Shown here piece after piece: positions 12,396 to 33,367 of a stretch of 51,131 nt of DNA. The stretch covers positions 1 to 51,131 of the forward strand of contig SYIF01000089.1 of the NCBI GenBank assembly GCA_005798855.1. Direction: 5' to 3'. Position 1 is the first letter of the stretch. Every line of letters begins with the position of its first letter. The DNA is from Actinomycetota bacterium (GTDB lineage Bacteria; Actinomycetota; Thermoleophilia; Gaiellales; F1-60-MAGs149). The notes below the pieces were generated by a model that saw only the letters and a list, made by a program, of their open reading frames with translations, did no database searches and was not told the DNA's origin. A program made the position numbers and the translations under genes.

Positions 12396-13190
12396 CTACG
12401 GCTGAACTTCGCGCGCGTACGCGTCGGGGTAGCCCTGACCCTGAATGGTCGTGGCTGCCAAAGCCGCCTCGTCCTTCGTGGTGTACGGCCCCGAGAACAC
12501 AGCCCAGTAACCTGGGTTGAGCGATGGGAACAATGAGGAGTCAAGCACGCCGACCATCGGCACACCAGCGGCAGCTGCCTGATCCGCGATTGCTTGGGCA
12601 TCGGCCTCGGTAAAGCTGGCAGCGTCCTTCGAAGCGAGGATCACCGCGTAGCCACTCTGGTCGGCAGGCCAGCCACTCGCTGTGCCGCCGGTGTCCGTCA
12701 TGCCGGTGTCGGTGATGCCCGTGTCGGTAATGCCTGTATCCGTGATCCCGGTGTCGGTGATCCCGGTGTCGGTGATCCCGGTGTCGGTGATGCCGGTGTC
12801 GGTGATCCCGGTGTCGGTGATGCCGGTGTCGGTGATACCCGTATCGGTGGTTCCTGTAGCCGTCGTCGCCGATGTAGTGAGAGGATCGTCGCCATCGTTC
12901 GTGGCGCGCAAGGCGACCCAGGCAAGGCCAACACCCGCGATAATCAAGACCACCGCAATGATCGCCAAAATCGACGTGTTGCGGTTGGCGAACGCGGAGC
13001 CTCCACCCGGCGGCGGTGGAATTTCATCAACCGCGAGGCGCTCGCCACATTCGAGGCAGTAGCGCTGGTCCGATCGCATCGGCGAGAGGCAGGCCGGGCA
13101 GCGGGCCACATCGGCAGCCGGCAGTGGCGCTTCGAACTGTGGACCGCCCGAGAGTGGATCGTCGATCGTGGGCTGGTCGTCGCTGCTCAC
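12396..13190 (-). CDS. zinc-ribbon / TM / TDTGI-repeat / SPOR-domain protein (candidate septal peptidoglycan binder)
   Basis: The GTG at 13190 overlaps the upstream stop (GTGA). Domains in order: zinc ribbon CPAC...CLEC, a TM helix (ILAIIAVVLIIAGVGLAWV), 11 pentapeptide repeats, and a SPOR-like C-terminus (GYAVILASKD...NPGYWAVFSGPYTTKDEA). Confidence 0.75.
   Translation of the reverse strand: MSSDDQPTIDDPLSGGPQFEAPLPAADVARCPACLSPMRSDQRYCLECGERLAVDEIPPPPGGGSAFANRNTSILAIIAVVLIIAGVGLAWVALRATNDGDDPLTTSATTATGTTDTGITDTGITDTGITDTGITDTGITDTGITDTGITDTGITDTGITDTGMTDTGGTASGWPADQSGYAVILASKDAASFTEADAQAIADQAAAAGVPMVGVLDSSLFPSLNPGYWAVFSGPYTTKDEAALAATTIQGQGYPDAYAREVQP
12688..12852 (-). repeat. about 11 tandem copies of a 15-bp unit (ccggtgtcggtgatS) encoding (TDTGI)n
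   Basis: Near-identical 15-mers lie head to tail. They are in frame within the SPOR protein. Confidence 0.9.
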
Positions 13191-15167: not shown

Positions 15168-15854
15168 ATGGCCGAGCGCATTCTGATTGTTGAAGACGAG
15201 ATCAACATTGCGACGCCGGTCAAGACGTACCTCGAGAAGGCGGGCTTCGACGTTGATCACGCGCTGACGGGTACCGATGCGTTGCGTCTGATGGAGGCGA
15301 CGCCGCCAAACCTGATTGTCCTGGACCTCAATCTGCCCGATATCGATGGTCTCGAGGTGTGTCGGCGGATTCGCGCTACCTCGCAGGTGCCGATCATCAT
15401 GGTGACGGCGCGCGACGATGATATCGACAAGATTGTTGGTCTCGAGGTTGGTGCAGACGATTATCTGACGAAGCCGTTCAACGTGCGCGAGTTGGTGGCG
15501 CGCGTCAAGGCGATCTTGCGGCGCGCACCGACGACGGCGCAACCGATTAGTGGGGTGTTGTCGCACGGCGGCGTCTCGATCGATCGCGGTCGTCACGAGG
15601 TCTTGCTCAATGGTGAGGTTGTTCAGCTTGCACCCAAGGAGTTCGATCTGCTCTGGACCTTGCTGGAGGAGCGCGGCCATGTGCTGACGCGCGATCAGCT
15701 GCTCGAGCGCGTATGGGGATATACATTTGCGGGCGACACGCGCACGGTGGATGTTCACGTCCGTCAGTTGCGCCGCAAACTTGGTGACGATTGTCCGGTC
15801 GTGACGGTGTGGGGCGTGGGGTACAAGGTCGGCGACGATGTTGCTGCTCCGTAG
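15168..15854 (+). CDS. OmpR-family response regulator
   Basis: The receiver domain reads ILIVEDE...LDLNLPDIDG...DDYLTKPF. A winged-helix output follows (VDVHVRQLRRKL...VWGVGY). Confidence 0.92.
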   Translation: MAERILIVEDEINIATPVKTYLEKAGFDVDHALTGTDALRLMEATPPNLIVLDLNLPDIDGLEVCRRIRATSQVPIIMVTARDDDIDKIVGLEVGADDYLTKPFNVRELVARVKAILRRAPTTAQPISGVLSHGGVSIDRGRHEVLLNGEVVQLAPKEFDLLWTLLEERGHVLTRDQLLERVWGYTFAGDTRTVDVHVRQLRRKLGDDCPVVTVWGVGYKVGDDVAAP

Positions 15855-17319
15855 CCTGCGCGCGCGGCTGCTGATCATCGGGATCGTGCCTGTGCTTGCG
15901 GCGTTGGTCGTCACTGCTGTGATGACGGTGCGGTCGGTCAATCAGTTTTCGGAGTCTCAGCGGTATGAGGCACGCACGCAGCAGGAACGCGATTTGAAGC
16001 GCTTGACGACGGGCCTGTCGCGCGAGTACGCGCCGCTGGTTGGTGGTTTGTTTATCGGCAAGAAAAATGATGTGCTCCAAAGCGTGCACCTCGAGGCCGC
16101 CTACGGCAGCTCGTTGTATTTCATCGCAACGATGAGGAGCGCCACGGTCAACGCCGAGGGGCTTGATTTGAAAAAACTGCAATGGGACCAACCACTGTCC
16201 ACCAAGATTGAAAAGCGGCTCAGTGACGGGCAAGCAGTTGTGATCCCGGCCCAGTACGTGCCCGCAACACTCCGTGGCGATGTCGTGGTGGCCCGCGGGT
16301 TGTTTCCCACCGAGCAGAGCGATTTTCTTGGTGCCAGCTCGGGCCTGTTGGTTGTGGCGCGCCCAGCCGTCCAGGTTTCCTCGCCTGCGGGGACGCTGCG
16401 GCGCGCGCTGATTCCAGCGTTTGCTGTTGGCTCGGCGGTGGCGATCATTCTCGCGCTCGTGCTTGGTCTTCGCCTCGTCCGGCCGTTGCGACGTCTGGCG
16501 GCGGCGGCGCGAGCGGTGGCGCGCGGCGACGATGATGTGCCGCTCGATACGTCGCGGGCCGATGAGATTGGAATGGTCAATCGCGCGTTCTTCGACATGA
16601 CCGTGAGGCTGACTGAGGCTCGCGATACTGAACGCCTCTTCCTGATGCGCGTCTCGCACGAATTACGCACGCCATTGACGGCGATTCGAGGCCAGGTCGA
16701 TGCCTTGGCCGATGGCATTTTCGATGATGAGGTTTCGCGGCAGACGGCGTACGAGGCGATCACGGCCGAGTCGTTGCGTCTCAATCGTCTCGTTGGAGAT
16801 TTGCTGTACCTCGCGCGGTTGCAGGCGAAGCGTTTTGGACTTGAGGCCGACGAGGTCGATCTCAACGTGTTGCTTGAGCAGGTTGTGACGGGCCAGGGTT
16901 CCGAGGCGCGCGAGCGGGAAATCGCCATCGGGCTGCAGTCTGGTGTCTTGCCCGTCGTGATTGGCGATGGCGATCGGATCTTGCAGATCGTGTCGAACCT
17001 CGTCCGCAATGCGGTTCGTTGGACGCCAGATGGCGGCACGATTACCGTCGCGGCGCTCGCCGATGCTGGCCGTGTGTGGATTACCGTTGACGACTCTGGG
17101 CCGGGCATTCCGCTCGAGAAGCGCGCCACCATTTTCCGGGCGTTCTACACGGAGGACGGCACGGGGACTGGGTTGGGTCTTGCAATTGCTCGCGAGCTGT
17201 CGTCGGCAATGGGTGGCAGCGTGGCGGTTGGGGATTCGCCGCATGGTGGTGCCCGTTTTGTGGTCGAACTCCCGTGCATTCGCGCGCGGTCCGAGAGTAT
17301 CTCTGCAACAGCTCAGTAA
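15838..17319 (+). CDS. sensor histidine kinase (2 TM, HAMP, HisKA, HATPase_c)
   Basis: The H-box is SHELRTPLTAI, the N-box is NLVRNAVRWTP, and the G-boxes are DDSGPGIP and GTGLGLAIA. It overlaps the response regulator gene by 17 nt. Confidence 0.9.
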   Translation: MLLLRSLRARLLIIGIVPVLAALVVTAVMTVRSVNQFSESQRYEARTQQERDLKRLTTGLSREYAPLVGGLFIGKKNDVLQSVHLEAAYGSSLYFIATMRSATVNAEGLDLKKLQWDQPLSTKIEKRLSDGQAVVIPAQYVPATLRGDVVVARGLFPTEQSDFLGASSGLLVVARPAVQVSSPAGTLRRALIPAFAVGSAVAIILALVLGLRLVRPLRRLAAAARAVARGDDDVPLDTSRADEIGMVNRAFFDMTVRLTEARDTERLFLMRVSHELRTPLTAIRGQVDALADGIFDDEVSRQTAYEAITAESLRLNRLVGDLLYLARLQAKRFGLEADEVDLNVLLEQVVTGQGSEAREREIAIGLQSGVLPVVIGDGDRILQIVSNLVRNAVRWTPDGGTITVAALADAGRVWITVDDSGPGIPLEKRATIFRAFYTEDGTGTGLGLAIARELSSAMGGSVAVGDSPHGGARFVVELPCIRARSESISATAQ

Positions 17320-17445: not shown

Positions 17446-17655
17446 ATGGAAACACTGTGGACGACGATGGTGCGGTTTATGCATCGGCTGACGGATCGGC
17501 GCGGGCAGGGCACGGTTGAGTATCTCGGCCTCGTGCTCGCCGTGGGCGCGCTGCTCCTGGCTGTCTCCGTGCAGGTCAAGGGTGGCGGGGCCGGGATCGG
17601 TGGTCAGATCTCGAAATCGATGGAGAAGGCAATCTCCTCGATCACGCAGCCCTAG
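17446..17655 (+). CDS. flp: Flp-family type IVb prepilin
   Basis: A small ORF with a GAGGT RBS 5 nt upstream. The leader ends ...DRRG, followed by QGTVEYLGLVLAVGALLLAV, which fits the Flp G/xxxxEY processing motif plus a hydrophobic helix. ATG 17467 is an alternative start. Confidence 0.8.
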   Translation: METLWTTMVRFMHRLTDRRGQGTVEYLGLVLAVGALLLAVSVQVKGGGAGIGGQISKSMEKAISSITQP

Positions 17656-18473
17656 TCTCGGCTCGGCTCGGCTGGCCGTTCGTGGCCGGCCGAGTCGACG
17701 CACGGGCTGTCGGTCGAAGAAATCGTGTCGAGGATCAGTTGATCGTTGCGCAGCACGCCGATGCGCCAGGCCTGGCTGCGTGGTAGCGGCGAGTACGTGA
17801 TGTGGTTAGCCGTCAGGAGGACGACGGGGCGGCAGAGGACGATGTCGTCTGCGCGCGTTGCTGGTGGCTGGGGATCAGCACCAGCGGACAGGCCAGCCAG
17901 CAGGTGGATGGCGCTGAGCGCCAGACCGAGTGGTCGTGCGATGCGGCGCGCCACGATACCGGCTCCGCCCCAGCCCAATGCGGTTGCAGCAGCGACGGTG
18001 CGATCTGTCCCAGTCGTTTGACCGGCGGCGTAGAGCGCCTCATCGCTCGCCGTAATGACCCGCAGCGAGATCTCGCCGGCGCCGCGTGCAACGATGCGGC
18101 GCGTGCCAGAGCGGCTCGGCAGAGATCGGATCGTGAGATCGGCCAACCACGACGGGTGGCGCACGGGAAGCAGCGTGACGATCGCGGTACGCAGCTGCTG
18201 ATCCGCTGCGTCTGTGCCGATCGACTCAGCGAGCCAGGCGCGTGCGCCACCCAGAGAAATTGCCCCCGCCCGACCAGACAGTGCTTGGTCGAGCGCGAGC
18301 GTGGCTGCTGGCGGTGGTGTTGCAGTCGTACCGAGTCGATCGGTGATCGTCTGGACGAGATTGGTGTGGACGACGGTTGAGGTAGTCGCCGTCAGGAGCG
18401 CGGCAACGACCAGCAGGATCGTCAGCCATTCCACGCTCGCCTGGCCGCGGCGTGGGTCAGCAGGAGACTGCAT
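17652..18473 (-). CDS. large pilin-like protein with a Flp/TadE-type leader (paralog 2)
   Basis: A GGAG RBS precedes the start. The N-terminus reads MQSPADPRRGQASVEWLTILLVVAALL. It is 273 aa, Ala-rich, and alignable by eye with the upstream paralog. Confidence 0.65.
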   Translation of the reverse strand: MQSPADPRRGQASVEWLTILLVVAALLTATTSTVVHTNLVQTITDRLGTTATPPPAATLALDQALSGRAGAISLGGARAWLAESIGTDAADQQLRTAIVTLLPVRHPSWLADLTIRSLPSRSGTRRIVARGAGEISLRVITASDEALYAAGQTTGTDRTVAAATALGWGGAGIVARRIARPLGLALSAIHLLAGLSAGADPQPPATRADDIVLCRPVVLLTANHITYSPLPRSQAWRIGVLRNDQLILDTISSTDSPCVDSAGHERPAEPSRD

Positions 18474-19287
18474 GGCTCCAGACCAGCTCGTGCTCAATCA
18501 GGTGTCCGGCACGAACGATAGCGATGTCGACTGCGGCGATCGGTGTGCCGAGCCGTAGACGGGTCGCCTCGAGTGGGTGGTGATCGACCCACGTCGCGGT
18601 TGCTTGGTTTGTGCGCCAGACAAAGCGACAGACGATGAAGTCGCCTTCGCGGCTCCCTGCCGGCGTGCCGCGCGTTACGGTCTCGGCGGCGGCGGCTCCA
18701 GCACCAATCACGATCGCAGCCGCGGCCGTCGCAGGATTGATCGAGCTAATCAGACTGACAACGCCAGACGTGCCGAGTTCGATGGCTTTGCTGGTTCCTG
18801 TGGCTGACTGCGAGGCAAGCCAGCGCCGCTCATCGTCCGCGGAGACGAGCCGTAGAGTCCGGGTCGCGCGGGGTGCCTCGTGCGACCACACCCCGCTGGT
18901 GACGCTTAGCCCGACGCCGTTGAACTCTGCTCGGGCGAGCGCCCAGGCCGGGTCGGTGAGAGGGCGCAAGCGACCCGTGGCGGCAGGTGGCGTCGCCGCT
19001 CGCAAGGCGTGCGAGAGAACGAGGGCGCGAGCCTCGGTTGGGCCGATCTCCTGGCCTAATCGTTCGATCGCATCGTTGATCGTTGGGCCCGAACCAGATA
19101 GTGCCGCGTCGACAAAGGCCAGAGCGGCCGGGCTGGCTGTCGGTGGCTCCGAGCGATCGAACACGGACTGGACAGCGGCAACGATGCCACTGGCAGGAAG
19201 CGTTGTCGCACCGATTGCAAGCAGTGCGGCAACACAGCCGACCAGCGCGACGTATTCGACAGTGCTCTGGCCGCGTTGCGATCGCAT
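18457..19287 (-). CDS. large pilin-like protein with a Flp/TadE-type leader (paralog 1)
   Basis: The N-terminus reads MRSQRGQSTVEYVALVGCVAALLAI. It is 276 aa. Its 3' end overlaps the start of paralog 2 by 17 nt. Confidence 0.65.
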   Translation of the reverse strand: MRSQRGQSTVEYVALVGCVAALLAIGATTLPASGIVAAVQSVFDRSEPPTASPAALAFVDAALSGSGPTINDAIERLGQEIGPTEARALVLSHALRAATPPAATGRLRPLTDPAWALARAEFNGVGLSVTSGVWSHEAPRATRTLRLVSADDERRWLASQSATGTSKAIELGTSGVVSLISSINPATAAAAIVIGAGAAAAETVTRGTPAGSREGDFIVCRFVWRTNQATATWVDHHPLEATRLRLGTPIAAVDIAIVRAGHLIEHELVWSHAVSC

Positions 19288-19503
19288 AGGAGCAGCATGC
19301 GTGCGGGGCACCGCCAGCGGCCGCGCACAGTCGCCCTCGTTCAACGCGCTCTGTAGCGGGGAGCGCACCATTCGACACGAGTGGCACACGACAGTACATG
19401 GATGGCGAGCGGACTCACACGCGTTCTGAGCGCCACGACGTCTCGGCTGCGGGCCTTTTTTGCGGCGGCGCAGCGTCGGAGCGCGAGCGAGCGCCAGAAC
19501 TAT

Positions 19504-19947
19504 CTACACGCTTGGCGGTTGCGTCGACGCGTCAGCGTCGGCGATCCGCTCGAGCTGCGAGCCGACCCGATCGAGTGCCCAGGTAATGCGCTCGAGTTCT
19601 CTTTCGATGCGCTGCGAGCGCGCTTCGAGTCGTGCGACGTCGCCGCGCACGGCACCAAGCCCGTCGACCAGTACATCAACAACAACTTCAAGATCTTCGA
19701 CGCGACCGACGCGCTCGGCGCGAACGTCCGCGGCCAGCGCGCGCGTACGTTGCGCCGTATCGATCGCCAGAGCGTGCAACTCGGCGACACGATGATCAAC
19801 GCCCGTACCTTCGTGCGCATCGAGTGCGCGAGCAACTGCAGCCTCGATCCGCGTTGGCAAGACCGCTCGTAGATCCGCGGCGATCTCCTTGACCTCATCG
19901 ATCTCGGCGGTTAGGTCGGGCTCGTGCTGTGGGGTGTCGTCGGTCAT
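19504..19947 (-). CDS. hypothetical acidic coiled-coil protein
   Basis: 147 aa and helical with a heptad-like pattern. The ATG overlaps the upstream stop (ATGA). Confidence 0.55.
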   Translation of the reverse strand: MTDDTPQHEPDLTAEIDEVKEIAADLRAVLPTRIEAAVARALDAHEGTGVDHRVAELHALAIDTAQRTRALAADVRAERVGRVEDLEVVVDVLVDGLGAVRGDVARLEARSQRIERELERITWALDRVGSQLERIADADASTQPPSV

Positions 19948-20351
19948 GCGCGATCCTCTGGAACGGTGAGTGCGGCGAACGAAGGATGGCCCGCTCCTGG
20001 TAGAGGGTAGCGCCCCGGCTCGATCCGGAAGGCGCCCACGGACTCATCGAATTCGATCTCGACGAGTCCGTGTTTGATGCGATGGTCGAGCCAGGCGGAG
20101 CGGAAGACGAGCTTCCGGAGCCAGTAGATCGGGTCTTCGCCGTCGCGCCCGCAGAGATCGACGAGGAGTTCACCAGTCGGGGAACGGGGCACAGTCAACT
20201 CGCCGTCGATTGCTGCCGCTACGAGATCGGCCTGCGCTGAGCGTGAGAGCGGACGAGTCGCCAACTCGAGTTCGACTGCGGCTCGCAACACGCGTTGCTC
20301 GAAGTCGGCGCGAGCAAACGCATAGGTGCAGCCCAAGAAGGCCAGCGTCAT
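19944..20351 (-). CDS. hypothetical protein (about 135 aa)
   Basis: This is the C-terminal part of the 403-aa track ORF. The upstream part is antisense to the DUF192 gene and is rejected. The start may instead be GTG 20384. Confidence 0.45.
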   Translation of the reverse strand: MTLAFLGCTYAFARADFEQRVLRAAVELELATRPLSRSAQADLVAAAIDGELTVPRSPTGELLVDLCGRDGEDPIYWLRKLVFRSAWLDHRIKHGLVEIEFDESVGAFRIEPGRYPLPGAGHPSFAALTVPEDRA

Positions 20352-20419
20352 GTCGTCACCCGAGTGAAAGTCTGCACAGTCCACGACTGGAGCGTAGCGA
20401 AGCGGTGGTTGCCGAATCG

Positions 20420-20433
20420 AGTGCGCGCGCACT
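20420..20433. promoter_or_regulatory. 14-bp perfect palindrome AGTGCGCGCGCACT in a divergent intergenic region
   Basis: It lies between the divergently oriented 135-aa gene and the DUF192 operon. It is a candidate operator. Confidence 0.3.
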
Positions 20434-20516
20434 GTCGGGCGACTGGTGTGCAACCCGCCGTGATCTCTGCGTCGCCTGCGCGTCCGTGGCGGCGGTGGTT
20501 GAGCAACGGTGCCGAC

Positions 20517-21071
20517 ATGGTTCAACTCTGCGACTACGACTCTGGCGCGGTCCTCGTCCCGACCGTCGAGACGGCTGGCAGTTTCAGTCTCGGCGCTATG
20601 CGAGGACTGATTGGTCGCACCTCGATCGAGCCCGGCGAGGGTCTTTTGCTGCGCGATCCGCTTGGCTGCATCCACACCTTCGGCATGCGCTGCGACATCG
20701 ACATTGTCTTTCTGTCGCGAACACTGCGTGTGCTCGAAGTGGCAGCAAACGTGCCACCTCGACGCCTGCGATGGGCTCGCGGCGGTGTCGTACAACTCGA
20801 GCTTGCTGGTGGGCAGGCAGCCTCCAACGGGCTGGTTCCCGGTCGGCGTCTGATGGTCGTAGAAAGACCGATCGATCAGAGCAGGGGACGGGTTGGGCGT
20901 CGATCTCCACACGCGGAAACCGATGCTGGCAGTCCGTCTCACATTCGCCGAAACGCCGCTTGCGGCAGCGCTGACAACGTGCCTACTGTGCCGTTCTGGC
21001 CTCGTTGGGAGGCACTCCACAACCCCGACGCTCTGCCGTTGGCAGTCGGTGGATCTATACAAAGGAGTTAG
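20517..21071 (+). CDS. DUF192 (COG1430) family protein
   Basis: The core reads GAMRGLIGRTSIEPGEGLLL.....IHTFGMRCDIDIVFLS....L.V, which is typical of DUF192. The C-terminal 60 aa are low-complexity and run into the RBS of the next gene. Confidence 0.7.
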   Translation: MVQLCDYDSGAVLVPTVETAGSFSLGAMRGLIGRTSIEPGEGLLLRDPLGCIHTFGMRCDIDIVFLSRTLRVLEVAANVPPRRLRWARGGVVQLELAGGQAASNGLVPGRRLMVVERPIDQSRGRVGRRSPHAETDAGSPSHIRRNAACGSADNVPTVPFWPRWEALHNPDALPLAVGGSIQRS

Positions 21072-21074
21072 AAG

Positions 21075-21764
21075 ATGTGCGCAAGCCTGCTCGTAGTTGA
21101 GGACGACGAGATGATCTCGGAGTTCCTGGTCGACAATCTGCGACAAGACGGTCACGCAGTGACCGTCGTCGAAACCGTCACGGACGCTCTCGTCGCGTTA
21201 CGTCGCACCCGCACCGAGATCGCGCTGATCGATGTCTCCCTGCCAGACGGTTCGGGTCTCGACGTCGTTCGCATGATTCGCTCTGGCGAGGCCGGGGCAT
21301 CCGACATTGGTGTGGTCGTTGTCAGTGGACGCTGCACCGAGCAAGATCGAATCCGCGCGTTCGAGCGCGGAGTGGATGACTACATCGTGAAGCCCTTCAG
21401 CTATCCAGAGTTGCTGCTTCGAACGGCATCGTTGGAATCACGACTTAGTGGACGCGTGGCTTCGGTCCTGACGGTTGGCTCGCTGACGATGGATCTTGCG
21501 GCCCGCGCCGTCACCCTCGATGGCGTGCTCATCCATCTGCCCGGCAAGGAGTACGAGCTGCTCACCGTCCTCGCGCGCGATCCCAACAAGGTCAACATGA
21601 AAGAAGATCTGATGGAGCGCATCTGGGGATATCGAAACTGCGGGACGCGGACCCTCGATTCGCACGCCTCGCGGCTACGGCGACGACTGACCGCTGTTGC
21701 TGACGGTCCCTGGGTAATCAACAACTGGAGCGTTGGGTACTCGCTGCGAACCGTGCTGCAATGA
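21075..21764 (+). CDS. OmpR-family response regulator
   Basis: An AAAGGAG RBS precedes the start. Receiver motifs are LLVVEDDE, ALIDVSLPDGSG and DDYIVKPF. A winged-helix output follows (LDSHASRLRRRL...VGY). Confidence 0.9.
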   Translation: MCASLLVVEDDEMISEFLVDNLRQDGHAVTVVETVTDALVALRRTRTEIALIDVSLPDGSGLDVVRMIRSGEAGASDIGVVVVSGRCTEQDRIRAFERGVDDYIVKPFSYPELLLRTASLESRLSGRVASVLTVGSLTMDLAARAVTLDGVLIHLPGKEYELLTVLARDPNKVNMKEDLMERIWGYRNCGTRTLDSHASRLRRRLTAVADGPWVINNWSVGYSLRTVLQ

Positions 21765-22948
21765 CTCGTCTCTGGCTCCGCATCACGATCGCAACCGTCG
21801 CGATCGTGGCAACTTTGGTGGTTGCGGTCGATACCTTCGTGATCGGGCCGGCTGCAGACCAGTCCGCGCGTGCCGCTGCGACTGCGGCCTCGACCGAGGC
21901 GACCTTGGTGGCTCAACTCGTGCGTCGAGGAGGAGCGCCGCCGAGCGACGCGGTCGTGCACACGGGACGCACGCGCGCGGAGGCTGCGGTCGGGAGCGCT
22001 CCGATCGGTGACGGGCGCTTCGTGCAGGTGCCACTCCGAGATCAGGGTGCACTCGTCGAGGCGCTCTGGCGAGGCCTTCTGTTCGTAATCGGAACAGGAG
22101 CCCTGGCCGGGGCAGGATGGGCGCTGTGGATTGGAGTAGTGCGTGCACGTGACCTCGAGAACGTCTGTCGAGCGTTGCGAGAAATGGGCGGAGCTGAGTC
22201 TGCTGCGGTCATGCCGGGAGAAACTGCGTCGATCGAGCATCTTGCTCGCGTCGTCGACGAACTCCGAGTAACACTGGCTCAGCAGATGCTTTCGCAGGCC
22301 GAACTCGTCGGCATCATGGCGCACGATTTACGCAGCCCACTGACGGGAATCTGTCTGGCGGGCGATTGGTTGGAACGATCGCAGAGCAGTGCGGAGCGTG
22401 CGCGAGCGCGGGGCCAGATCCAGCGAGAGTGCGATCGGCTGGCAGCAATTGCCGACGACGTGTTGCAACTGTGCAGAGACGCGCACTCCAACACCACCAA
22501 TACGCAGCACGGGGTGGCAGCCGATCAACTGTTGCTCGATGTCGTCGATCGACTTCGCAGCGGCGGCTCTGGGTCCCAACAGGTCCACGTTGCGTCTGTC
22601 CTCTCCACCGCAGCGTGTGTCGACTCGAGCATCGCTCGTGCAGTCGCAAACCTCGCCGAGAATGCCGCCCGCTATGCACCCGCAGGTACGCAGGTATCGC
22701 TCGCTGTGAGGCAGACCGAAGCGGGCACAGTTGAGTTTGTCATTGAGGATGAAGGTCCCGGATTTGCGCCGGAGTTGCTGGAGCGTGCGTTTGCACAGGG
22801 TCGCACGTCACCGGGCCGTGCGGGACTCGGACTCTCGAGCGTGCGACGAGTCGTCGCAGCAGCGGGCGGAGCATCGCAGCTAGAGCGTCACCACGGCCGT
22901 GGAACGCGCGTCGTGCTTCAGGTGCCCCAACTGGACCGGAGCCTGTGA
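21761..22948 (+). CDS. sensor histidine kinase
   Basis: It has an ATGA overlap with the response regulator gene. It has two TM segments, an H-box AHDLRSPLTGI, an N-box NLAENAARYAP, and G-boxes EDEGPGF and GLGLS. Confidence 0.88.
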   Translation: MTRLWLRITIATVAIVATLVVAVDTFVIGPAADQSARAAATAASTEATLVAQLVRRGGAPPSDAVVHTGRTRAEAAVGSAPIGDGRFVQVPLRDQGALVEALWRGLLFVIGTGALAGAGWALWIGVVRARDLENVCRALREMGGAESAAVMPGETASIEHLARVVDELRVTLAQQMLSQAELVGIMAHDLRSPLTGICLAGDWLERSQSSAERARARGQIQRECDRLAAIADDVLQLCRDAHSNTTNTQHGVAADQLLLDVVDRLRSGGSGSQQVHVASVLSTAACVDSSIARAVANLAENAARYAPAGTQVSLAVRQTEAGTVEFVIEDEGPGFAPELLERAFAQGRTSPGRAGLGLSSVRRVVAAAGGASQLERHHGRGTRVVLQVPQLDRSL

Positions 22949-23652
22949 TGGCGGTTGCCGAAGCCGACTACGAAACGCGGTCGCTGCCAGCAGCGCTCGA
23001 ACGCAGCCATTCTTCCGGACGCTCGGTGGTGCTCGTCGGTGCGCACGGTGGAGCGGGAACGTCCACAGCCGCGCTGGCCATCGCGAGCGATGCGGATCGG
23101 GGCGTATGCCTGATCGACGCGGATCTGGCGGGCGGAACGCTCGGGATGATCCTCGGTATCGGCAATCGGATTGGGGATGCCGGCCTTGCCGCGGTACGTG
23201 AGGGCGAGGGCAACGCCTTTTCGACACTCGCGCAACGGGTGCCGTTTGGTTGGTTCGTTGAAATCGGTCCGCGTCCCGAGCTCGTCTGGTTGATTCGAGA
23301 TGGCGCGTTACGAGAGCTGACGAGGCAGGCGATGCGTCAGGTCGCCCTGATCGTGGTCGACGTAGCTCGCCCAGTTGGACCATCCTGCGAGCCGGTCGTT
23401 GACGCGGACGTGATTGTCATCGTCGGACATGCCAATCGTTTCGACGCCATCGAGCGGACGCAGCAGCGACTCGTACGGCTGGGTGTCGATGCCGCCCGGA
23501 TCGTGTTGTGCCCAACCGCGCCCACCATTGTCGAGCGCACAGTTGGGCGGCTTCGAGGGAGCCAGACTTGCATCGACGTGCGCCACGGCGACGAGCTACT
23601 GCTCCTCGTCGAGGGGCGGCTCGCCGCACTCGGCCCAAGGGAGCGCGGATGA
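22945..23652 (+). CDS. tadZ: TadZ/CpaE/Ssd-like ParA-MinD family protein with a degenerate Walker A
   Basis: VVLVGAHGGAGTSTAALA sits in place of KGGxGK[ST], followed by CLIDADL. The start (GTG 22945 or ATG 22948) overlaps the histidine kinase stop. Confidence 0.7.
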   Translation: MMAVAEADYETRSLPAALERSHSSGRSVVLVGAHGGAGTSTAALAIASDADRGVCLIDADLAGGTLGMILGIGNRIGDAGLAAVREGEGNAFSTLAQRVPFGWFVEIGPRPELVWLIRDGALRELTRQAMRQVALIVVDVARPVGPSCEPVVDADVIVIVGHANRFDAIERTQQRLVRLGVDAARIVLCPTAPTIVERTVGRLRGSQTCIDVRHGDELLLLVEGRLAALGPRERG

Positions 23653-24590
23653 CCTCGCTGCTGTCGTTGGCCGGCCCCTTGGCACCGCTCCTGATGAACC
23701 CCCAGGTGGGTGAGGTTGTCGTCAACGGCCCGTTCGATGTCTGGGTCGAGCTGGATGGCCAGTTGCGCCGTGTCGACACACGCTTTCGCGATTCGCTCGA
23801 GTTGCGGCAGACGGCAGTCAGATTGGTGGCTGCCTGTGGGCGACGAATTGACGACGCAACGCCGATGGTCGATGCTCGCCTGCCGGACGGTTCGCGCGTC
23901 AACGTCGTCTTGCCACCACTCGCGGTTGACGGGCCACTGATCACAATCCGTCGCTTCGGCACGGCACCGCTGCGATTCAGCGACCTCGTCGAGCGTGGCT
24001 CGATCTCAGCCGAGCAGGCGATCGATCTGACCATGCTTGTGGAGAGTCGCCGCAACACGCTCATCAGCGGAGGGACGGGTACCGGTAAGACGACGTTGCT
24101 TGCTGCGCTGACCGGTTTGGTGCCAACAAATGAACGCCTCGTAACGGTCGAAGATGCCGCCGAGTTATCAGTCCAAGCGGAACACGTGGCGCGATTGGAG
24201 GCGCGGCCAGCCAACGTGGAGGGGAAGGGCGCGATCGAGCTACGTCAGCTGATCCGGAACGCACTGCGGATGCGACCAGATCGGCTGATCGTCGGAGAAA
24301 TTCGTGGGGGCGAGGCAATCGACCTGTTGCTTGCGATGAACACGGGCCATAATGGCTCGCTCGCCACGATCCATGCCAATGGCCCAGAGGACGCATTACG
24401 TCGACTCGAGACGATGGCGCTGATGGGTGGCGTCGATATTCCGCACACCGCAATCCGTGAGCAGATTGCCTCGGCGGTGCACGCGGTGGTTCACGTCGTG
24501 CGATCCCCCGACGGAACCCGCTACATTGCATCCGTCGACCGCGTTGAGCGCGCGGGCGTCGGCTGGCACCTCCAGGCGGTCGAGCGATGA
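23649..24590 (+). CDS. tadA: TadA/CpaF secretion ATPase
   Basis: Motifs: Walker A GGTGTGKTT, VTVEDAAEL, RMRPDRLIVGEIRG.EA, and His box NTGH.GSLATIHAN. It has an ATGA overlap with tadZ. Confidence 0.92.
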   Translation: MTSLLSLAGPLAPLLMNPQVGEVVVNGPFDVWVELDGQLRRVDTRFRDSLELRQTAVRLVAACGRRIDDATPMVDARLPDGSRVNVVLPPLAVDGPLITIRRFGTAPLRFSDLVERGSISAEQAIDLTMLVESRRNTLISGGTGTGKTTLLAALTGLVPTNERLVTVEDAAELSVQAEHVARLEARPANVEGKGAIELRQLIRNALRMRPDRLIVGEIRGGEAIDLLLAMNTGHNGSLATIHANGPEDALRRLETMALMGGVDIPHTAIREQIASAVHAVVHVVRSPDGTRYIASVDRVERAGVGWHLQAVER

Positions 24591-25150
24591 GGCGCCTCCG
24601 ACGGAGCGACCCAACGGTGAGCCTACTTGCCCGGTCGCTGCCGGAGATAGCACGGGCGCTAGCTCGCTGCTGTGCTGCGGGGCTCCCAATCGCGGACGCC
24701 TTTGATCGCGCAGCCGACGCAGTGGACGAGGTCGCCGTGGACCTGCTCCGTGCCTGTGCGGCCGGTCTCCGTTCGGGTGCTGCAACACGTAGCGCCCTCG
24801 CGCCACTGCTACCTGTCCCCGGCGGCAGCGTGTTGGTGGGAACGATCGAACTGCATCAGGAACTCGGCGGCGACCTCGTGGCATCGCTCGCGGCCGTCGC
24901 CGAGGGGCTTGCCGATCGCGAGCGTCTCCGCCTCGAAGCCGAGGTCGCCACTGCGCAGGCCAGACTGGCGGCGCGGATCGTGCCACTCGCGCCCGTGGTC
25001 TCACTCGGATTTCTCGGCGTGCTGGCGCCATCCGCGCTCGCTGCGCTGTTTACGACCGCTCCGGGACTTGGAATACTCGGAGTCTCCACAGGTCTGACCT
25101 GCGTGGCACTGTTTTTGCTTCGCCGCATCGCACGGGCGGTGGGGTTATGA
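24587..25150 (+). CDS. tadB: TadB-like platform protein (single T2SSF domain)
   Basis: 187 aa with a T2SSF-like pattern (P..L..L...L.AG..........G.......ELGG.L...L) and C-terminal TM helices. It has an ATGA overlap with the upstream gene. Confidence 0.75.
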   Translation: MRRLRRSDPTVSLLARSLPEIARALARCCAAGLPIADAFDRAADAVDEVAVDLLRACAAGLRSGAATRSALAPLLPVPGGSVLVGTIELHQELGGDLVASLAAVAEGLADRERLRLEAEVATAQARLAARIVPLAPVVSLGFLGVLAPSALAALFTTAPGLGILGVSTGLTCVALFLLRRIARAVGL

Positions 25151-25773
25151 CGACACCCCCACGACGGGCCGCTTCGATCGCGTGGCTGGCTGGCTGGGGT
25201 AGCGTCGGTCTCTGGCTGTGTTGGCTCGTGACTGGCAGTCTGGTCATGGCGGTAATCGGCGGCCTCGGCGGCTGTGGTGCAGCGGTCGTTTTGACTCGCC
25301 GCCGGCGCCGCGCTCTGCGGAGGCTGCAGGCCGAAAAAATCACGGCGGCCCTGCCCGACGTGTTCGAGTTGCTCGCAGCCACGGTCGATGGTGGTGCCGC
25401 TCCCGACCTGGCCGTCAAGCGGGTCGCGGCGTTCGCGACAGAACCGCTCCGTAGCATGCTCGTCGGGGCCATCCAGGCGGCAGCCGGGATTGGTCTCGGC
25501 GCGGCGTTTCGTGCGTCTCACCCTGCATTGCGACCACTGGGATCCTTGTTCCAGCAGAGCGAAGAACTGGGCGTCCCGATTGCCGGCGCACTGCGCCTAC
25601 TGGCCGCCGATGCGCGACTTCAGGCCCGGGCGGCGGCGCGAGAGCGTGCAGCCGCGGCCGCACCAAAGATGCTGCTCGTGATCGGTGGGTTGCTGGCACC
25701 GGCAGCACTGCTGATCGTGATTGGCGGCCAGGCGCTGGTGCTTCGAACCCTGATCGGTCCGGTGGTTGGCTGA
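25147..25773 (+). CDS. tadC: TadC-like platform protein (single T2SSF domain)
   Basis: 208 aa with N-terminal TM helices. It has LPDVFELLAATVDGG, SEELGVPIAGALR and a terminal TM helix. It has an ATGA overlap with the upstream gene. Confidence 0.75.
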   Translation: MTTPPRRAASIAWLAGWGSVGLWLCWLVTGSLVMAVIGGLGGCGAAVVLTRRRRRALRRLQAEKITAALPDVFELLAATVDGGAAPDLAVKRVAAFATEPLRSMLVGAIQAAAGIGLGAAFRASHPALRPLGSLFQQSEELGVPIAGALRLLAADARLQARAAARERAAAAAPKMLLVIGGLLAPAALLIVIGGQALVLRTLIGPVVG

Positions 25774-26468
25774 TGCTCGCGGGACGGAGAGGGCAGGCAA
25801 CCACCGAGTGGATCGCGATGCTGATGGCATGTACCGTGCTCGCCACGGTGGGCTTGAAGTTCGCGAATGCCCGTCTCGTGACCATGCCGCCGCTCTCGCC
25901 GATGATGGCAGAGATCGGTCAGCAGTCCACGCGGCAGAGCGACGCTCTGGGAGCGGCGCAATTTTTCGGTTTCTTTCCGGTCGCATCCCTACCACACATC
26001 GAGGGGAACTCGATCGTCGCAATCGCCGAGCGCCTAGAGCGGCTACGCATCGTGGAGGTGCCATTCGGCTCGAATACCGGCCCGGGGATCATCGACTTTA
26101 CCGACGGCAATGTCGAGGCGTGGTGTGCCGATTTCGTCTCCTGGGTGTTGCGAGCTGCAGGACGACCATTCACCGGTGGTGCGTCTGGTGGCTGGCGGTT
26201 GGCATGGACGCTCGATGTGCGGAGCTGGTTCGCCGAGCGGGGTGCATTTCGCGACCGGCTCGTCGCCGACCCACAGCCAGGCGACGTTGTCTGGTTCACG
26301 TTCGGCCACGTTGGCATCGTGCGACGAGCTACGCCAACAACGATCGACACGATTGAAGGCAACTCGGCCAACGCTGTCAGTGCACACACCTATGAGAACT
26401 GGCGGCTCAATTCGAACATCGGCGGATTTGGGCGTCCTATCGGCGACAACACGTCCGCGGGGTACTGA
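25773..26468 (+). CDS. CHAP-domain peptidoglycan hydrolase with an Flp/TadE-type N-terminal leader
   Basis: The N-terminus is MLAGRRGQATTEWIAMLMACTVLA. The CHAP catalytic pattern is WCADFVSWVL ... GDVVWF.FGHVGIV ... TIEGNS. The start overlaps the tadC stop (TGATG). Confidence 0.75.
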   Translation: MLAGRRGQATTEWIAMLMACTVLATVGLKFANARLVTMPPLSPMMAEIGQQSTRQSDALGAAQFFGFFPVASLPHIEGNSIVAIAERLERLRIVEVPFGSNTGPGIIDFTDGNVEAWCADFVSWVLRAAGRPFTGGASGGWRLAWTLDVRSWFAERGAFRDRLVADPQPGDVVWFTFGHVGIVRRATPTTIDTIEGNSANAVSAHTYENWRLNSNIGGFGRPIGDNTSAGY

Positions 26469-26526: not shown

Positions 26527-27675
26527 GTGCGCCGTCGTCTTGTGACCCTATGTGCGGTCGTTGCCATCGCAGCGATTGCCGTCCCAGTTGCTGCTGCGCG
26601 CAGTATGGCTCCGCGCGCCGACACGCTGACGCTCGCCTTTGAAGGCCCCTTGACGGGTGGCCAGGCCGCTAATGGGCAAGACATGTTGCGGGGCACCAAG
26701 CTCGCCATTGCCGAGATCAACAAGGCTGGCGGCGTGCTTGGGATGCAGATCAAGCTGATCACCGGCAACGACAAGGCAACGGCGTCGATTGGGGTAACCG
26801 TCGCCGAGAACCTCGTCAAGCAGAAGCCATTTGGACTGATTGGACCTTACAACTCGTCCGTCGGCCTCGCCAACCTGCCGATCTACATCGCTGGTGGCGT
26901 GTTTCCCGTCCAGCTCACCTCGACCGATGACACTAAGAACTTGGGCATCACAGTGCAGCCGAAGAACTCTCAGATCTCGCCCGTCGAGGTCCAGTGGATG
27001 ACCGAGCAAAAAGCCGGCAAAGTCTCGATCCTGTTCGATCCTGACACCTACACCAAGGGCATGGCGGACCGCATGTTCGCGGCGCTCAACAAAAAGGGTG
27101 TGCTGGTGACGAAAATCGCCATCGATCCCAAGAGCAAGGACTACAGCGCGCAAGTCGCGCAGGCCGTGACAAACAATCCTGATGTCGTCTACGTCAGCAC
27201 CTACTACCCCGAGGGCGCCATCATCGCCAAGAACCTACTCGCATCGCAGGCCGGCCATCCGACCAAGTGCTTCATGGGCCTCGCCAACCAAGACGCGGTG
27301 TTCGTAGAGCAAGCCGGTATTCCGGCAGCATCGGCCTGCACGTTTAGTGGCGTGCCGACGCCAAGCCAGTTTGGCAATTCCAAGTCGACGGCGTACGTCT
27401 CAAACTACGCCAAAAAGTTCAACACCAACCCAGGCCCGTGGGGGATCTTCACGTACGACTCGGTCTACACGATGGTCAGCGCGATTCGACGTGCGCGTGG
27501 CCTCAGTTACCGCGCCGTTTCAAAGCAGGCCTTTCACACCACGAATCTCTCCGGCGCAACGGGTAGAATCACGATCGATCCGAAGACTGGATACCGCTCG
27601 AACGTCCCCGTCGCGATCCTGAACGTAGACGCGACGACCGGCAAGTTCGTACTCAGCAAGCTCTACACGAAGTAG
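26527..27675 (+). CDS. ABC transporter substrate-binding protein, Leu/Ile/Val-binding (LivJ-like) family
   Basis: The GTG start is followed by a signal peptide (VRRRLVTLCAVVAIAAIAVPVAAA). Family motifs follow: G.LTG..A..G.....G..LAI.EIN.AGGVLG....L...D. No permease or ATPase genes are adjacent. Confidence 0.8.
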   Translation: MRRRLVTLCAVVAIAAIAVPVAAARSMAPRADTLTLAFEGPLTGGQAANGQDMLRGTKLAIAEINKAGGVLGMQIKLITGNDKATASIGVTVAENLVKQKPFGLIGPYNSSVGLANLPIYIAGGVFPVQLTSTDDTKNLGITVQPKNSQISPVEVQWMTEQKAGKVSILFDPDTYTKGMADRMFAALNKKGVLVTKIAIDPKSKDYSAQVAQAVTNNPDVVYVSTYYPEGAIIAKNLLASQAGHPTKCFMGLANQDAVFVEQAGIPAASACTFSGVPTPSQFGNSKSTAYVSNYAKKFNTNPGPWGIFTYDSVYTMVSAIRRARGLSYRAVSKQAFHTTNLSGATGRITIDPKTGYRSNVPVAILNVDATTGKFVLSKLYTK

Positions 27676-27773: not shown

Positions 27774-28106
27774 ATGTCCGATGCACTCGAGATCAACAGC
27801 GCCAACTTCCAGGGCGAAGTCATCGAATCTGACATCCCCGTCCTGATCGACTTCTGGGCCGAGTGGTGTGGGCCGTGCAAGGCGTTGTCGCCGATCATCG
27901 ACGAGCTCGCTGGCGAGTACGCAGGCAAGATCAAGATCGCCAAGCTCGACGTTGATGCCGAGCCCGGCCTAGCCGGCCAGTACGGCGTCCTCTCGATTCC
28001 GATGGTTGCGCTGTTCAAGGACGGCGAGGTCGTCGAGCGATCCGTCGGTCTGAAGCCCAAGGATCGGCTCGTTGCCGATCTCAACCTCAGCACGCATTCC
28101 GCCTAG
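27774..28106 (+). CDS. trxA: thioredoxin
   Basis: The WCGPC active site is present, with a GAAGGAG RBS. The ORF is 110 aa. Confidence 0.93.
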   Translation: MSDALEINSANFQGEVIESDIPVLIDFWAEWCGPCKALSPIIDELAGEYAGKIKIAKLDVDAEPGLAGQYGVLSIPMVALFKDGEVVERSVGLKPKDRLVADLNLSTHSA

Positions 28107-31533: not shown

Positions 31534-31968
31534 ATGCTGCTTGGTGAATACGCTCAGAAGCTCGATGAGAAGAACCGCGTGACGGTTCCTGCTCGTCTGC
31601 GTGAGCCATTCGCCGACGGCCTGTTCGTCACGCGAGGCCTTGATCACTGCGTCGCGATCTACGCCCGTGACGGCTGGGAAAGCTTTGTTGAAGCGCAGAC
31701 CTCGCGACTCGATCCGTTTACCCGCGAAGGCCGCCAGCTCGAGCGTTTCCTCTTCGGTGGCGCTGTCGAAGCCGAGCTCGACCGGCAGGGACGCGTCGCA
31801 CTACCCGCTCCACTCATGCAGCACGCCGTGCTCCAGCGCGAGATCGTCGTCGTTGGTGTTCGTGATCGACTCGAAATTTGGGATCGCGTGGCCTGGGAAC
31901 GTGGCCTCGCCGACTTGGAAGGCAGTGCCGAAAATGTCGCCGAGCGCCTGGTCCGTGATGCCCGCTAA
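31534..31968 (+). CDS. mraZ: transcriptional regulator MraZ
   Basis: The N-terminus reads G......LD.KNRV.VPA..R. There are two SpoVT/AbrB-like halves, and it is the first gene of the dcw cluster. Confidence 0.93.
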   Translation: MLLGEYAQKLDEKNRVTVPARLREPFADGLFVTRGLDHCVAIYARDGWESFVEAQTSRLDPFTREGRQLERFLFGGAVEAELDRQGRVALPAPLMQHAVLQREIVVVGVRDRLEIWDRVAWERGLADLEGSAENVAERLVRDAR

Positions 31969-32929
31969 CGCCGCAATCCATGATCCCGTGCTCGCGCACG
32001 AAGTCGTGGCTCTGCTCGACGTGCAGCCCGGCATGACCGTCGTCGACGGCACCTTTGGTGCTGGTGGACACGCCACAATGCTGGCTGAATTGATGCAGGG
32101 GCGTGGGGCCTACGTCGCGATCGATCGCGACCCCTCGGTCGAGAACCGGGCCCGCTCGTTTCGCGCCTCGCATCCCGATATGGCGGTGCGGCTCCTCAAG
32201 CGCGATTTCGTCGAGGCCTTCCGCTCGCTCGCCGTTGAGAACGTCGAAGCCGATGCGATCCTGCTCGACCTTGGCGTCTCCTCGATGCAAATCGACCAGC
32301 CTGAGCGCGGCTTCTCCTACGCCGTCGATGCGCCGCTCGACATGCGTATGGATCCCCGTGGGGGCGCCACCGCCGCCGACCTGCTGGCCAACCTCTCGGA
32401 GCGCGAGCTCGCCGACATGTTCTCGCGCTACGGCGAAGAGCGCTATTCGCGACAGATTGCTCGCGCCATCTGCCGTCGCCGCATGTCGCAGCCCTACGAG
32501 CGCAGCGCCGACCTCGTCGATACGATCCGCCACGCGATTCCGACGCCCGCACAGTTTGGCTCGGGGCACCCCGCCAAGCGCGTCTTTCAGGCACTTCGCA
32601 TCGCCGTTAACGACGAGCTTGCGATGGTCGAAGACGGTCTCGATGCGGCCATGCAGATCCTCAAGCCTGGCGGCCGCATCGCTGTCATTTCGTTCCATTC
32701 GCTCGAGGATCGGATCGCCAAAGAGCGGTTCCGTGATGCCTCTGCACCGTGCACGTGCGCGCCTGATCTTCCGATCTGCGGGTGCAATCGTGAGGCCACG
32801 CTGCGTGTCTTGACGCCTCGGGTGATTCGTCCGGGCTCGTTCGAAACTGACCGTAATCCTCGCGCCGCTTCGGCGCGCCTACGCGTCGCAGAACGAACCG
32901 CTGCCGCCCTACCGAAGGACGCTGCCTGA
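31958..32929 (+). CDS. rsmH: 16S rRNA (cytosine1402-N4)-methyltransferase RsmH
   Basis: Motifs: H.PVL..E........G...VD.TFGAGGH, LLDLGVSS.Q.D...RGFS, SFHSLEDR.K. Confidence 0.92.
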   Translation: MPANAAIHDPVLAHEVVALLDVQPGMTVVDGTFGAGGHATMLAELMQGRGAYVAIDRDPSVENRARSFRASHPDMAVRLLKRDFVEAFRSLAVENVEADAILLDLGVSSMQIDQPERGFSYAVDAPLDMRMDPRGGATAADLLANLSERELADMFSRYGEERYSRQIARAICRRRMSQPYERSADLVDTIRHAIPTPAQFGSGHPAKRVFQALRIAVNDELAMVEDGLDAAMQILKPGGRIAVISFHSLEDRIAKERFRDASAPCTCAPDLPICGCNREATLRVLTPRVIRPGSFETDRNPRAASARLRVAERTAAALPKDAA

Positions 32930-33354: not shown

Positions 33355-33367
33355 CAGACTCACTCAC

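Follow-up and report, generated by a model that had tools for sequence, protein, structure and literature searches.

A pilin-type leader on a predicted cell-wall hydrolase in a conserved Tad/Flp-type pilus locus of uncultured Actinomycetota

How filaments of the type IV kind cross peptidoglycan is unresolved, especially where the wall is as thick as that of monoderm bacteria. The contig SYIF01000089.1 of an uncultured soil or freshwater actinobacterium (51,131 nucleotides, ca. 63% G+C; hereafter the 51-kb window, or window) puts this question in concrete form. It carries a locus with TadZ-like, TadA, TadB and TadC genes in which four very different proteins begin with the same class III leader: a short Flp-like prepilin, two large leader-bearing paralogs that we term ParA and ParB, and a leader-bearing protein with a CHAP domain, termed CHAP. 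Why would a predicted wall-cutting enzyme carry the N-terminus of a pilin? We see an even chance that a monoderm, Gaiellales/Thermoleophilia-like actinobacterium here encodes, on its chromosome, a Tad/Flp-type (type IVc) pilus with four class III-leader substrates, one of which, CHAP, is a wall-cutting subunit. Because CHAP is translationally coupled to tadC and bears the pilin's leader in 26 of 26 species-level genomes with a readable N-terminus, the locus offers a concrete and testable candidate for the crossing of the wall.

Four proteins with a common N-terminus

A first-pass annotation of the window had described four N-termini in which GQxxxE and an aromatic residue precede a hydrophobic helix, and all four are present as described. 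In a listing of open reading frames (ORFs) and a six-frame scan, exactly four ORFs of the window combine [GA]-Q-x3-E-aromatic with a hydrophobic helix at the N-terminus. The scan pattern was [GA]Q-x3-[ED]-x with no more than one charged or polar-breaking residue among the next 15 and a start codon at most 40 codons upstream; by chance it is expected 0.08 times per window on average (maximum 1, 200 dinucleotide-preserving shuffles). The four products are listed here, with a slash at the putative processing site:

17446-17655, plus strand: Flp-like prepilin, 69 residues; N-terminus ...DRRG/QGTVEYLGLVLAVGALLLAV, site RRG/QGTVEY behind a variable 20-residue leader, predicted mature part ca. 49 residues
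17652-18473, minus strand: ParA, 273 residues; N-terminus MQSPADPRRG/QASVEWLTILLVVAALL, leader MQSPADPRRG/QASVEW; putative minor pilin
18457-19287, minus strand: ParB, 276 residues, paralog of ParA; N-terminus MRSQRG/QSTVEYVALVGCVAALL, leader MRSQRG/QSTVEY; putative minor pilin
25773-26468, plus strand: CHAP, 231 residues; N-terminus MLAGRRG/QATTEWIAMLMACTVLA, leader MLAGRRG/QATTEW; predicted peptidoglycan hydrolase

Profile comparisons with hhalign align the three families (Flp, ParA/B and CHAP) at their N-termini only, with E-values of 2e-6 to 2e-11. The alignment covers the first ca. 48 columns between Flp and ParA/B (probability 97%), 33 N-terminal columns between CHAP and ParA/B (95%) and 26 between Flp and CHAP (89%). 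A Flp-like leader on proteins encoded in a tad locus, the trait of the TadE/F/G pseudopilins, is therefore found here as well (profile probability 89-97%; 26 genomes). Since the Flp alignment spans essentially the whole mature Flp, ParA and ParB look, from their sequences, like a Flp module to which a C-terminal domain of ca. 220 residues from an unfamiliar family has been added.

The Flp-like protein is a short pilin with the G/xxxxEY processing motif and hydrophobic helix expected in Tad systems. G-Q-G-T-V-E-Y is invariant in 14 homologues, behind a variable leader of ca. 20 residues and at the head of a mature part of ca. 49. Homologues in much of the clade show 68-99% identity, which makes Flp the most conserved of the four leader-bearing proteins, as expected of a major filament subunit, and we regard it as the probable major pilin.

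ParA and ParB share 31% identity over 183 residues (E = 2e-8). The start codon of ParA is backed by an ortholog (P0145), and most ParB orthologs have 276 residues and start at the same Met. Their family is small: an exhaustive profile hidden Markov model search of 1.84 billion representatives returned 51 ParA/B clusters at E ≤ 1e-3. The proposal that the large proteins are substrates of the machine had been tied to retention of the motif in their orthologs, and [GA]-Q-[AS]-x-x-[ED] opens all 30 sequences inspected. Only Q7 (Gln at +1) and D216 are invariant in an alignment of 39 sequences, in which E11 (the +5 position, at least 90%), E153, R213, C220, R259 and C276 are near-invariant. D216 sits in the motif PPGxRxGDxVxCRPV, and the conservation of D216, C220 and C276 could reflect a disulfide bond, or else an active or binding site of the C-terminal domain that has escaped recognition. 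Structure prediction had been proposed for the paralogs; run on ParB with AlphaFold2 (39 sequences), it gave a confident model (predicted local distance difference test score, pLDDT, 84.9) with an N-terminal helix at 5-29, a helical domain and two beta-sheets, for which Foldseek found nothing in the PDB at E ≤ 1e-3. Faint VirB8- or NTF2-like matches (probability ≤ 0.12) were disregarded. The ParA/B profile matched no PDB sequence, and no Pfam family covers the two proteins. ParA/B are thus an uncharacterised family, probably with a new fold arrangement; as putative minor pilins they would be a new family for which a fold is predicted with confidence and relatives are not known.

CHAP matches PF05257 (E = 3.2e-11; 44 bits against a gathering threshold, GA, of 26). 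Its AlphaFold2 model (40 sequences, pLDDT 87.2) consists of a helix at 6-36, a second at 42-58, a disordered linker of low confidence at 59-78 and a compact CHAP domain at 79-222 (pLDDT >95) with the catalytic Cys118 and His179, both of which are invariant in the 40 sequences. Both marks of a papain-like hydrolase, a model match over threshold and a conserved Cys-His dyad, are thus present; fold and dyad are intact, and a peptidoglycan hydrolase is predicted. The leader is strongly constrained: across 18 aligned sequences G7 and Q8 never change and E12 is kept in at least 90% (one Asp), whereas the helix behind the leader and the linker (ca. 40-50 residues) vary among orthologs. R-x-G-Q-A-x-x-E-W is kept in orthologs down to 38% identity. 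The CHAP profile found no match among PDB sequences. Foldseek matched the model best (probability ca. 1.0) to phage endolysin CHAP domains (Ly7917, PlyC, PlyGRCS) and NlpC/P60 autolysins (Acd24020, MepS), with 5d74, 4f88 and 7cfl among the best-matching structures.

Such endolysins lyse cells from outside, and this would suit a different use of the enzyme, in which ParA, ParB and CHAP sit at the pilus tip and CHAP cuts the walls of neighbours for contact killing or DNA release. The pneumococcal CHAP fratricin CbpD, which acts alongside the competence pilus, is a parallel. Tad tips with variable outward domains mediate prey killing in the Myxococcus Kil system (PMC12075869), and Tad pili serve DNA uptake in another actinobacterium (PMC4322843). 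We nevertheless consider a weapon or lysin at the tip rather unlikely: no immunity gene, com genes or toxin partner are evident in the conserved block described below, the tight coupling to tadC and strict one-copy conservation suit a structural assembly factor better, and a linker of ca. 40 residues is short for a tip effector.

A Tad core in a conserved chromosomal block

The following genes directly precede CHAP:

22945-23652, plus strand: TadZ/Ssd-like P-loop ATPase, a short form of 234-235 residues (TIGR03815, CpaE_hom_Actino/Ssd)
23649-24590, plus strand: TadA/CpaF-type ATPase, 313 residues (T2SSE, PF00437, E = 1.5e-58), 61-97% identical in relatives
24587-25150, plus strand: TadB-like platform protein with a single T2SSF domain (PF00482, E = 2e-12)
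25147-25773, plus strand: TadC-like platform protein with a single T2SSF domain (PF00482, E = 5.4e-9)

These genes overlap each other by 4 nucleotides, and the ATG of CHAP overlaps the TGA of tadC (TGATG), so that CHAP is the last gene of the tad operon. The model searches suggested by the first-pass annotation for this part of the locus all gave matches (T2SSE at 1.5e-58, T2SSF twice, CHAP at 44 bits). The annotation had also placed the TadZ-like, TadA, TadB and TadC genes between the leader-bearing ones, which is correct, but cc147, p135, a DUF192 gene and a response regulator (RR) and histidine kinase (HK) pair, all described in the last section, lie there too. Both a TadA/CpaF-type ATPase and two adjacent single-T2SSF platform genes, as expected of a Tad system, are present. 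An operational definition of Tad/Epd systems rests on two single-T2SSF platform genes and TadZ (PMC6668835), and with its TadA ATPase, two single-T2SSF genes and TadZ-like protein the locus appears to fit this type. It has no secretin, as expected for a monoderm.

TadA reaches 350 bits with TIGR03819, slightly below the equivalog cutoff of 373. The TadZ-like protein, which has no N-terminal receiver-like domain, reaches 40.5 bits with TIGR03815 (E = 1.8e-10, cutoff 154), and its matches to ParA/MinD families are weak. Both models belong to the actinobacterial Rv3654c-Rv3660c locus (Ssd/TIGR03815, TadA/TIGR03819 and a DUF4244 Flp), which shares with ours the phylum and the order TadZ-like-TadA-TadB-TadC. 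The TadE-like proteins of that locus have ca. 80-125 residues in M. tuberculosis. Here, in contrast, both NCBIfam scores are under cutoff (350 versus 373 and 40 versus 154), Flp has no DUF4244 match, and the leader-bearing partners are proteins of 273-276 residues and CHAP rather than small TadE-like ones.

This kinship bears on the first-pass suggestion of pilus-linked secretion. TadA and the TadZ-like protein are nearest to the models of Rv3659c and Rv3660c, and the TadE-like Rv3654c and Rv3655c have been reported to be secreted (PMC2864267); a Tad-like machine resembling the type II secretion system (T2SS) or the Rv3654c-Rv3660c system might therefore release ParA, ParB and CHAP as soluble exoproteins. 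Cleavage at G/Q would, however, leave the hydrophobic helix on the protein and point to the membrane or a filament rather than a soluble product, a highly conserved Flp pilin is present, and to our knowledge T2SS substrates do not bear class III leaders. We judge secretion improbable, and it is not supported over a pilin-like membrane or filament subunit.

The best named relative of the TadZ-like protein is the septum site-determining protein Ssd. The tad-CHAP-thioredoxin block lies ca. 5 kb upstream of the dcw cluster (rsmH, a penicillin-binding protein gene, murE/F, mraY, murD; window ca. 31600-44000), as it does in three related loci (L005, L007, L008). Together these could describe a dcw-linked, Ssd-type apparatus for division or wall remodelling that places CHAP at the septal or lateral wall, with no external pilus. 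Yet the Ssd match is far under its cutoff (40 versus 154 bits), neighbourhood by itself is weak evidence, and a conserved Flp pilin with a TadA/B/C set implies filament assembly; such an apparatus appears very improbable. The dcw adjacency itself could be a coincidence or a functional link to wall growth.

To what extent is the pilus cluster that we favour conserved? One genome per GTDB species was scanned with the CHAP alignment, and the resulting 80 loci were sorted by tblastn with the window proteins; one locus that ends at a contig edge (L029) was left out of scoring. The order cc147-p135 / DUF192-RR-HK-TadZ-TadA-TadB-TadC-CHAP-Trx is shared by 26 species-level loci, all from Thermoleophilia, Gaiellales or unclassified Actinomycetota metagenome-assembled genomes (MAGs). 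Synteny of the leader-bearing genes with tadZABC in relatives, on which the first-pass idea depended, thus holds across 26 species-level genomes. The leader [GA]Q-x3-[ED] occurs in 26 of 26 tad-linked CHAP proteins with a readable N-terminus, in one of them (L036) by way of a frameshift. The other CHAP homologues, ca. 55 in number (from Nocardia, Mycobacterium and relatives, Saccharibacteria, Acidimicrobiia and others), have no tad gene nearby; none of them has the leader, and they carry Sec signal peptides or plain transmembrane (TM) anchors instead. Where the flank is long enough, both large leader-bearing proteins are found (L007, L008, L011, L013, L014, L031, L034), and a mature Flp of 48-49 residues was found in L011, L013 and L034. 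All four leader-bearing proteins (Flp, both large ones and CHAP) recur in the distant relative L034.

Some of these records call for comment. Three (L013, L016 and L021; CAMAWJ010000004.1, CAMDVX010000079.1 and CAZPQP010000077.1) are titled 'Bifidobacterium breve' or 'Bifidobacterium sp.' and carry a Thermoleophilia-type locus, with CHAP identities of 52-88% and full synteny where the contig allows; the Bifidobacterium names look wrong. In L036 (9730-10414) a frameshift divides the CHAP gene: its leader ORF, which has Asp at +5, stops at ...ARGQAAVDAVGVALALAV, and the CHAP domain is encoded in a different frame. Either the long-read assembly is in error here or the gene is a pseudogene. The name of TIGR03819 prompted the thought of a mobile-element or conjugative origin, which was rejected because the locus is chromosomal and syntenic beside housekeeping and dcw genes in many species.

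Proposed handling of the four substrates

How would one machine deal with such different proteins? On the pilus reading, all four products, each with a basic leader, Gly or Ala at -1, Gln at +1, Glu or Asp at +5 and a hydrophobic helix, would be inserted into the membrane, a single TadV-type prepilin peptidase encoded elsewhere would cut the four leaders, and the TadABC platform would engage all four through their alpha-1N helices. One peptidase and one platform for all is the simplest explanation, given a shared and constrained junction and a Flp that must be processed. The 49-residue mature Flp would become the filament subunit, and ParA and ParB would act as TadE/TadF/TadG-like minor pilins that prime and cap the filament. 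CHAP, composed of pilin helix, linker and Cys-His hydrolase, would be the machine's own wall-cutting subunit, placed at the assembly site or in the priming/tip complex, where it would open the peptidoglycan so that the filament can cross the wall. Cleavage, incorporation into a filament and a self-directed, wall-opening role are thus what we infer for these proteins. The placing of ParA and ParB as priming/tip minor pilins, with CHAP in place of the large modular third subunit, rests on analogy with TadE/F/G and KilL/M/N (PMC12075869). The self-directed role of CHAP is favoured by operon coupling, one-copy conservation and the precedent of machine-specific wall hydrolases.

More specifically, CHAP may be a true subunit of the Tad priming/tip complex together with ParA and ParB, such that a Flp filament tipped or primed with the enzyme cuts its way through the thick monoderm wall. 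We put this forward tentatively, with rather more doubt than confidence. If assembly does proceed as proposed, CHAP would be the first wall hydrolase that is built into a Tad system and serves it specifically, and the first Flp-type modular pilin to bear an enzyme. It would also give the archaeal class III non-pilins a counterpart in bacteria.

Several findings weigh against a pilus with an enzymatic subunit. All carriers are uncultured MAGs. Neither the window nor the ±10 kb searched in 28 related loci yielded an A24 prepilin peptidase (TadV/CpaA), with a crude GxGD[..][KR] motif and TM/hydropathy scan followed by Pfam on candidate ORFs. None of the pilin models Flp_Fap, TadE, DUF4244 and Class_IIIsignal is over threshold on any of the four proteins, in Pfam/NCBIfam searches of whole proteins and isolated N-termini. 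In some orthologs, position -1 is Ala or position +5 is Asp. The CHAP model lacks a globular pilin module and consists of the pilin helix, a linker and the enzyme. Finally, the data do not separate a self-directed CHAP from one that acts on other cells.

With respect to the pilin models, the Flp_Fap and TadE searches that the first-pass annotation had proposed accordingly gave nothing at threshold on any leader-bearing protein. Below threshold, the archaeal Class_IIIsignal (PF04021) is the best Pfam match for two N-termini (E = 0.004-0.09, 13-14 bits against a GA of 23.7). For the Flp ORF this best match has E = 0.09; the ORF matches neither Flp_Fap (PF04964) nor DUF4244 (PF14029). Flp_Fap reaches E = 0.03 on the ParB N-terminus (14.5 bits, GA 32.2). 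Among 39 ParA/B family members, one has a sub-threshold DUF4244 match (E = 0.02) and TadE reaches E = 0.67 in one; neither TadE (PF07811) nor the Tad (PF13400) N-terminal domain matches ParA, ParB or CHAP at E ≤ 0.1. Every family of leader-bearing substrates has an invariant Gln at +1, which, with the archaeal best match, recalls EppA-type G/Q sites and agrees with the proposed sisterhood of Epd and Tad, which have been described as sister systems (PMC6668835). A mature N-terminus at Gln+1 may be pyroglutamate.

Tad peptidases can be encoded outside the tad locus. A 3-TM ORF at 12652-13059, considered as a prepilin peptidase candidate, was negative on Pfam. The lack of a peptidase gene nearby could also mean that the N-terminus is an unprocessed anchor, associated with the machine, that docks CHAP and ParA/B to TadB/C with neither peptidase cleavage nor polymerisation. 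TadG has been suggested to act in this way, CHAP has no pilin head domain, and the Ala at -1 of some orthologs would make a poor cleavage site. Uncleaved anchors become less likely, however, given that G-1 and Q+1 are invariant and E+5 nearly so while the rest of the CHAP helix and linker varies, and that the plain anchors of the CHAP homologues outside tad loci lack these residues. The buried Glu/Asp at +5 and the G/A-Q junction are, moreover, invariant in three unrelated families and identical to the Flp site, at which the Flp pilin must be cleaved. We therefore think an unprocessed anchor unlikely.

The proposed pilus has much in common with Tad/Flp systems that contain TadE/F/G or KilL/M/N (Aggregatibacter, Caulobacter, Pseudomonas, Myxococcus Kil): a core of TadZ-like, TadA, TadB and TadC proteins, two single-T2SSF proteins, a short Flp with G/xxxxEY, and further proteins with a prepilin-type N-terminus, of which two are paralogous and one has a variable C-terminal module. 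It differs from them in the absence of secretin, RcpB/C and TadD, consistent with a monoderm, in having no peptidase in the locus and in the Q+1 of all substrates. Its putative minor pilins form a new family that TadE of Pfam does not match, CHAP stands as the third leader-bearer where others have a vWA/adhesin-type TadG, and two two-component system pairs, DUF192, p135 and cc147 are embedded in the locus.

The first-pass annotation had held that a substrate set with large proteins and an enzyme goes beyond the textbook tad locus. As regards size it does not exceed current knowledge, since TadG, KilN and modular pilins have already been described: TadG and KilN are large modular Tad minor pilins that form tip complexes, the TadE/F/G tip complexes include a large modular subunit (PMC12075869), and a survey of modular type IV pilins lists a peptidase module among their architectures (PMC8179133). 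The enzyme-bearing subunit is where the claim stands. No peptidoglycan hydrolase has been reported with Tad pili (2025 structural paper, PMC12307814), our search of the literature turned up no tad-operon enzyme with a Flp-type leader, and a CHAP enzyme with such a leader appears to be undescribed. On sequence grounds, the locus reads as a monoderm Tad system that combines a pilin-leadered CHAP with a putative new family of minor pilins and that is kept throughout an order-level clade of uncultured Actinomycetota.

Modular type IV pilins such as PilB and PilC of Streptococcus sanguinis likewise place a functional module behind a class III signal and pilin helix (PMC8179133). They are, however, N-methyl proteins of the T4a/Com type (IPR012902) with a globular pilin module, whereas here a CHAP module follows a bare Flp-type helix in a Tad system. 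The leader is of the Flp-type G/Q...E-Y/W form and not N-methyl-Phe, and CHAP has no globular pilin module; the concept of a modular pilin applies but membership as defined in PMC8179133 does not. The locus would widen this concept to Flp-type pilins and enzymatic cargo.

Wall hydrolases of other machines (VirB1, the CHAP-containing TraG/PrgK of Gram-positive type IV secretion systems, FlgJ, EtgA) are also encoded in the machine's operon, have an N-terminal membrane tether and are thought to open the wall locally. Gram-positive conjugation systems thus use CHAP wall enzymes (TraG/PrgK). In these proteins the tether is a Sec signal or an ordinary TM anchor, whereas here it is a prepilin-type leader. 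The general point about such machine-specific enzymes is made in PMC12307814. Archaeal class III non-pilins, as in the Sulfolobus bindosome, and EppA-dependent Epd pilins share with our proteins the class III signal, a dedicated type IV pilus-like ATPase and platform, and the [KR]-G/Q...E junction. The sugar-binding proteins of the bindosome carry class III signals, and EppA-dependent Epd pilins have Gln at +1. Our system differs in being bacterial, in that its cargo is a hydrolase and not a binding protein, and in its sub-threshold PF04021 matches.

Neighbouring genes

The remaining genes in and around the locus are:

15168-15854, plus strand: RR1, OmpR-type response regulator (Pfam Response_reg and Trans_reg_C), just upstream of flp with HK1
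15838-17319, plus strand: HK1, histidine kinase HAMP-HisKA-HATPase_c (Pfam, gene calls)
19504-19947, minus strand: cc147, 147 residues, predicted cytoplasmic coiled-coil protein, conserved in the locus, role not assigned
19944-20351, minus strand: p135, ca. 135 residues, conserved, motif YWLRKLVFRSAW, role not assigned
20517-21071 (start approximate), plus strand: DUF192 protein (PF02643, E = 7e-12, 45.7 bits against a GA of 27), first gene of the plus-strand operon
21075-21764, plus strand: RR2, OmpR-type response regulator inside the tad operon (gene calls with Pfam), 47-98% identical in relatives
21761-22948, plus strand: HK2, histidine kinase (Pfam HisKA and HATPase_c) predicted to span the membrane twice, with a short loop outside; conserved
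26527-27675, plus strand: solute-binding protein (Peripla_BP_6), ordinary signal peptide; its gene separates CHAP from trx in the lineage of the window
27774-28106, plus strand: thioredoxin gene, after CHAP in nearly every locus reaching that far, 66-97% identity

The order RR-HK-flp is retained in L011, L012 and L013. In tad-CHAP loci whose sequence reaches them, cc147, p135 and DUF192 are kept at the same position, cc147 with 36-98% identity by tblastn. L007 and L008 have a called DUF192 gene at this position, L005 contains one as well, and the tad loci that extend so far give tblastn matches to it. cc147 has no match in Pfam or NCBIfam and p135 none in Pfam, and a literature search for DUF192 and pili returned nothing relevant. 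The DUF192 protein has no signal peptide, and its gene and p135 are divergent, with 165 bp between the starts. The three proteins may serve this form of Tad system as accessory or regulatory components not described before. The public gene call at this place is a 358-residue minus-strand protein (window 19944-21071) that overlaps the DUF192 gene. It is probably too long, a mis-annotation from long overlapping ORFs in high-GC DNA, since relatives carry a plus-strand DUF192 gene of 114-125 residues at this position and only the last ca. 135 codons of the minus-strand ORF, p135, are conserved.

Could the Peripla_BP_6 protein be a class III substrate of the bindosome kind? This idea was dropped because its signal peptide is ordinary and L005, L007 and L008 lack it; the latter marks it as a lineage-specific insertion outside the system. 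The position of the thioredoxin gene may reflect housekeeping synteny or a tie to the Cys-dependent CHAP and the Cys pair of ParA/B. Next after it comes a conserved 110-residue protein without a family.

In one lineage, a secreted protein made of ca. 38-residue 'WTSQTSAADNxWxSVTYGNGLFVAVA' repeats, possibly a beta-propeller, is encoded between cc147 and ParB (L005 3-587, minus strand; L011 2-754, plus strand). Further upstream in the window (8408-11686), a PafBC-like double WYL-WCX regulator (810 residues, minus strand), for which a look-up gave nothing on record, stands beside a DinB-type polymerase of the IMS family. The pair is kept in L011 and is a DNA-damage module unrelated to the pilus locus.

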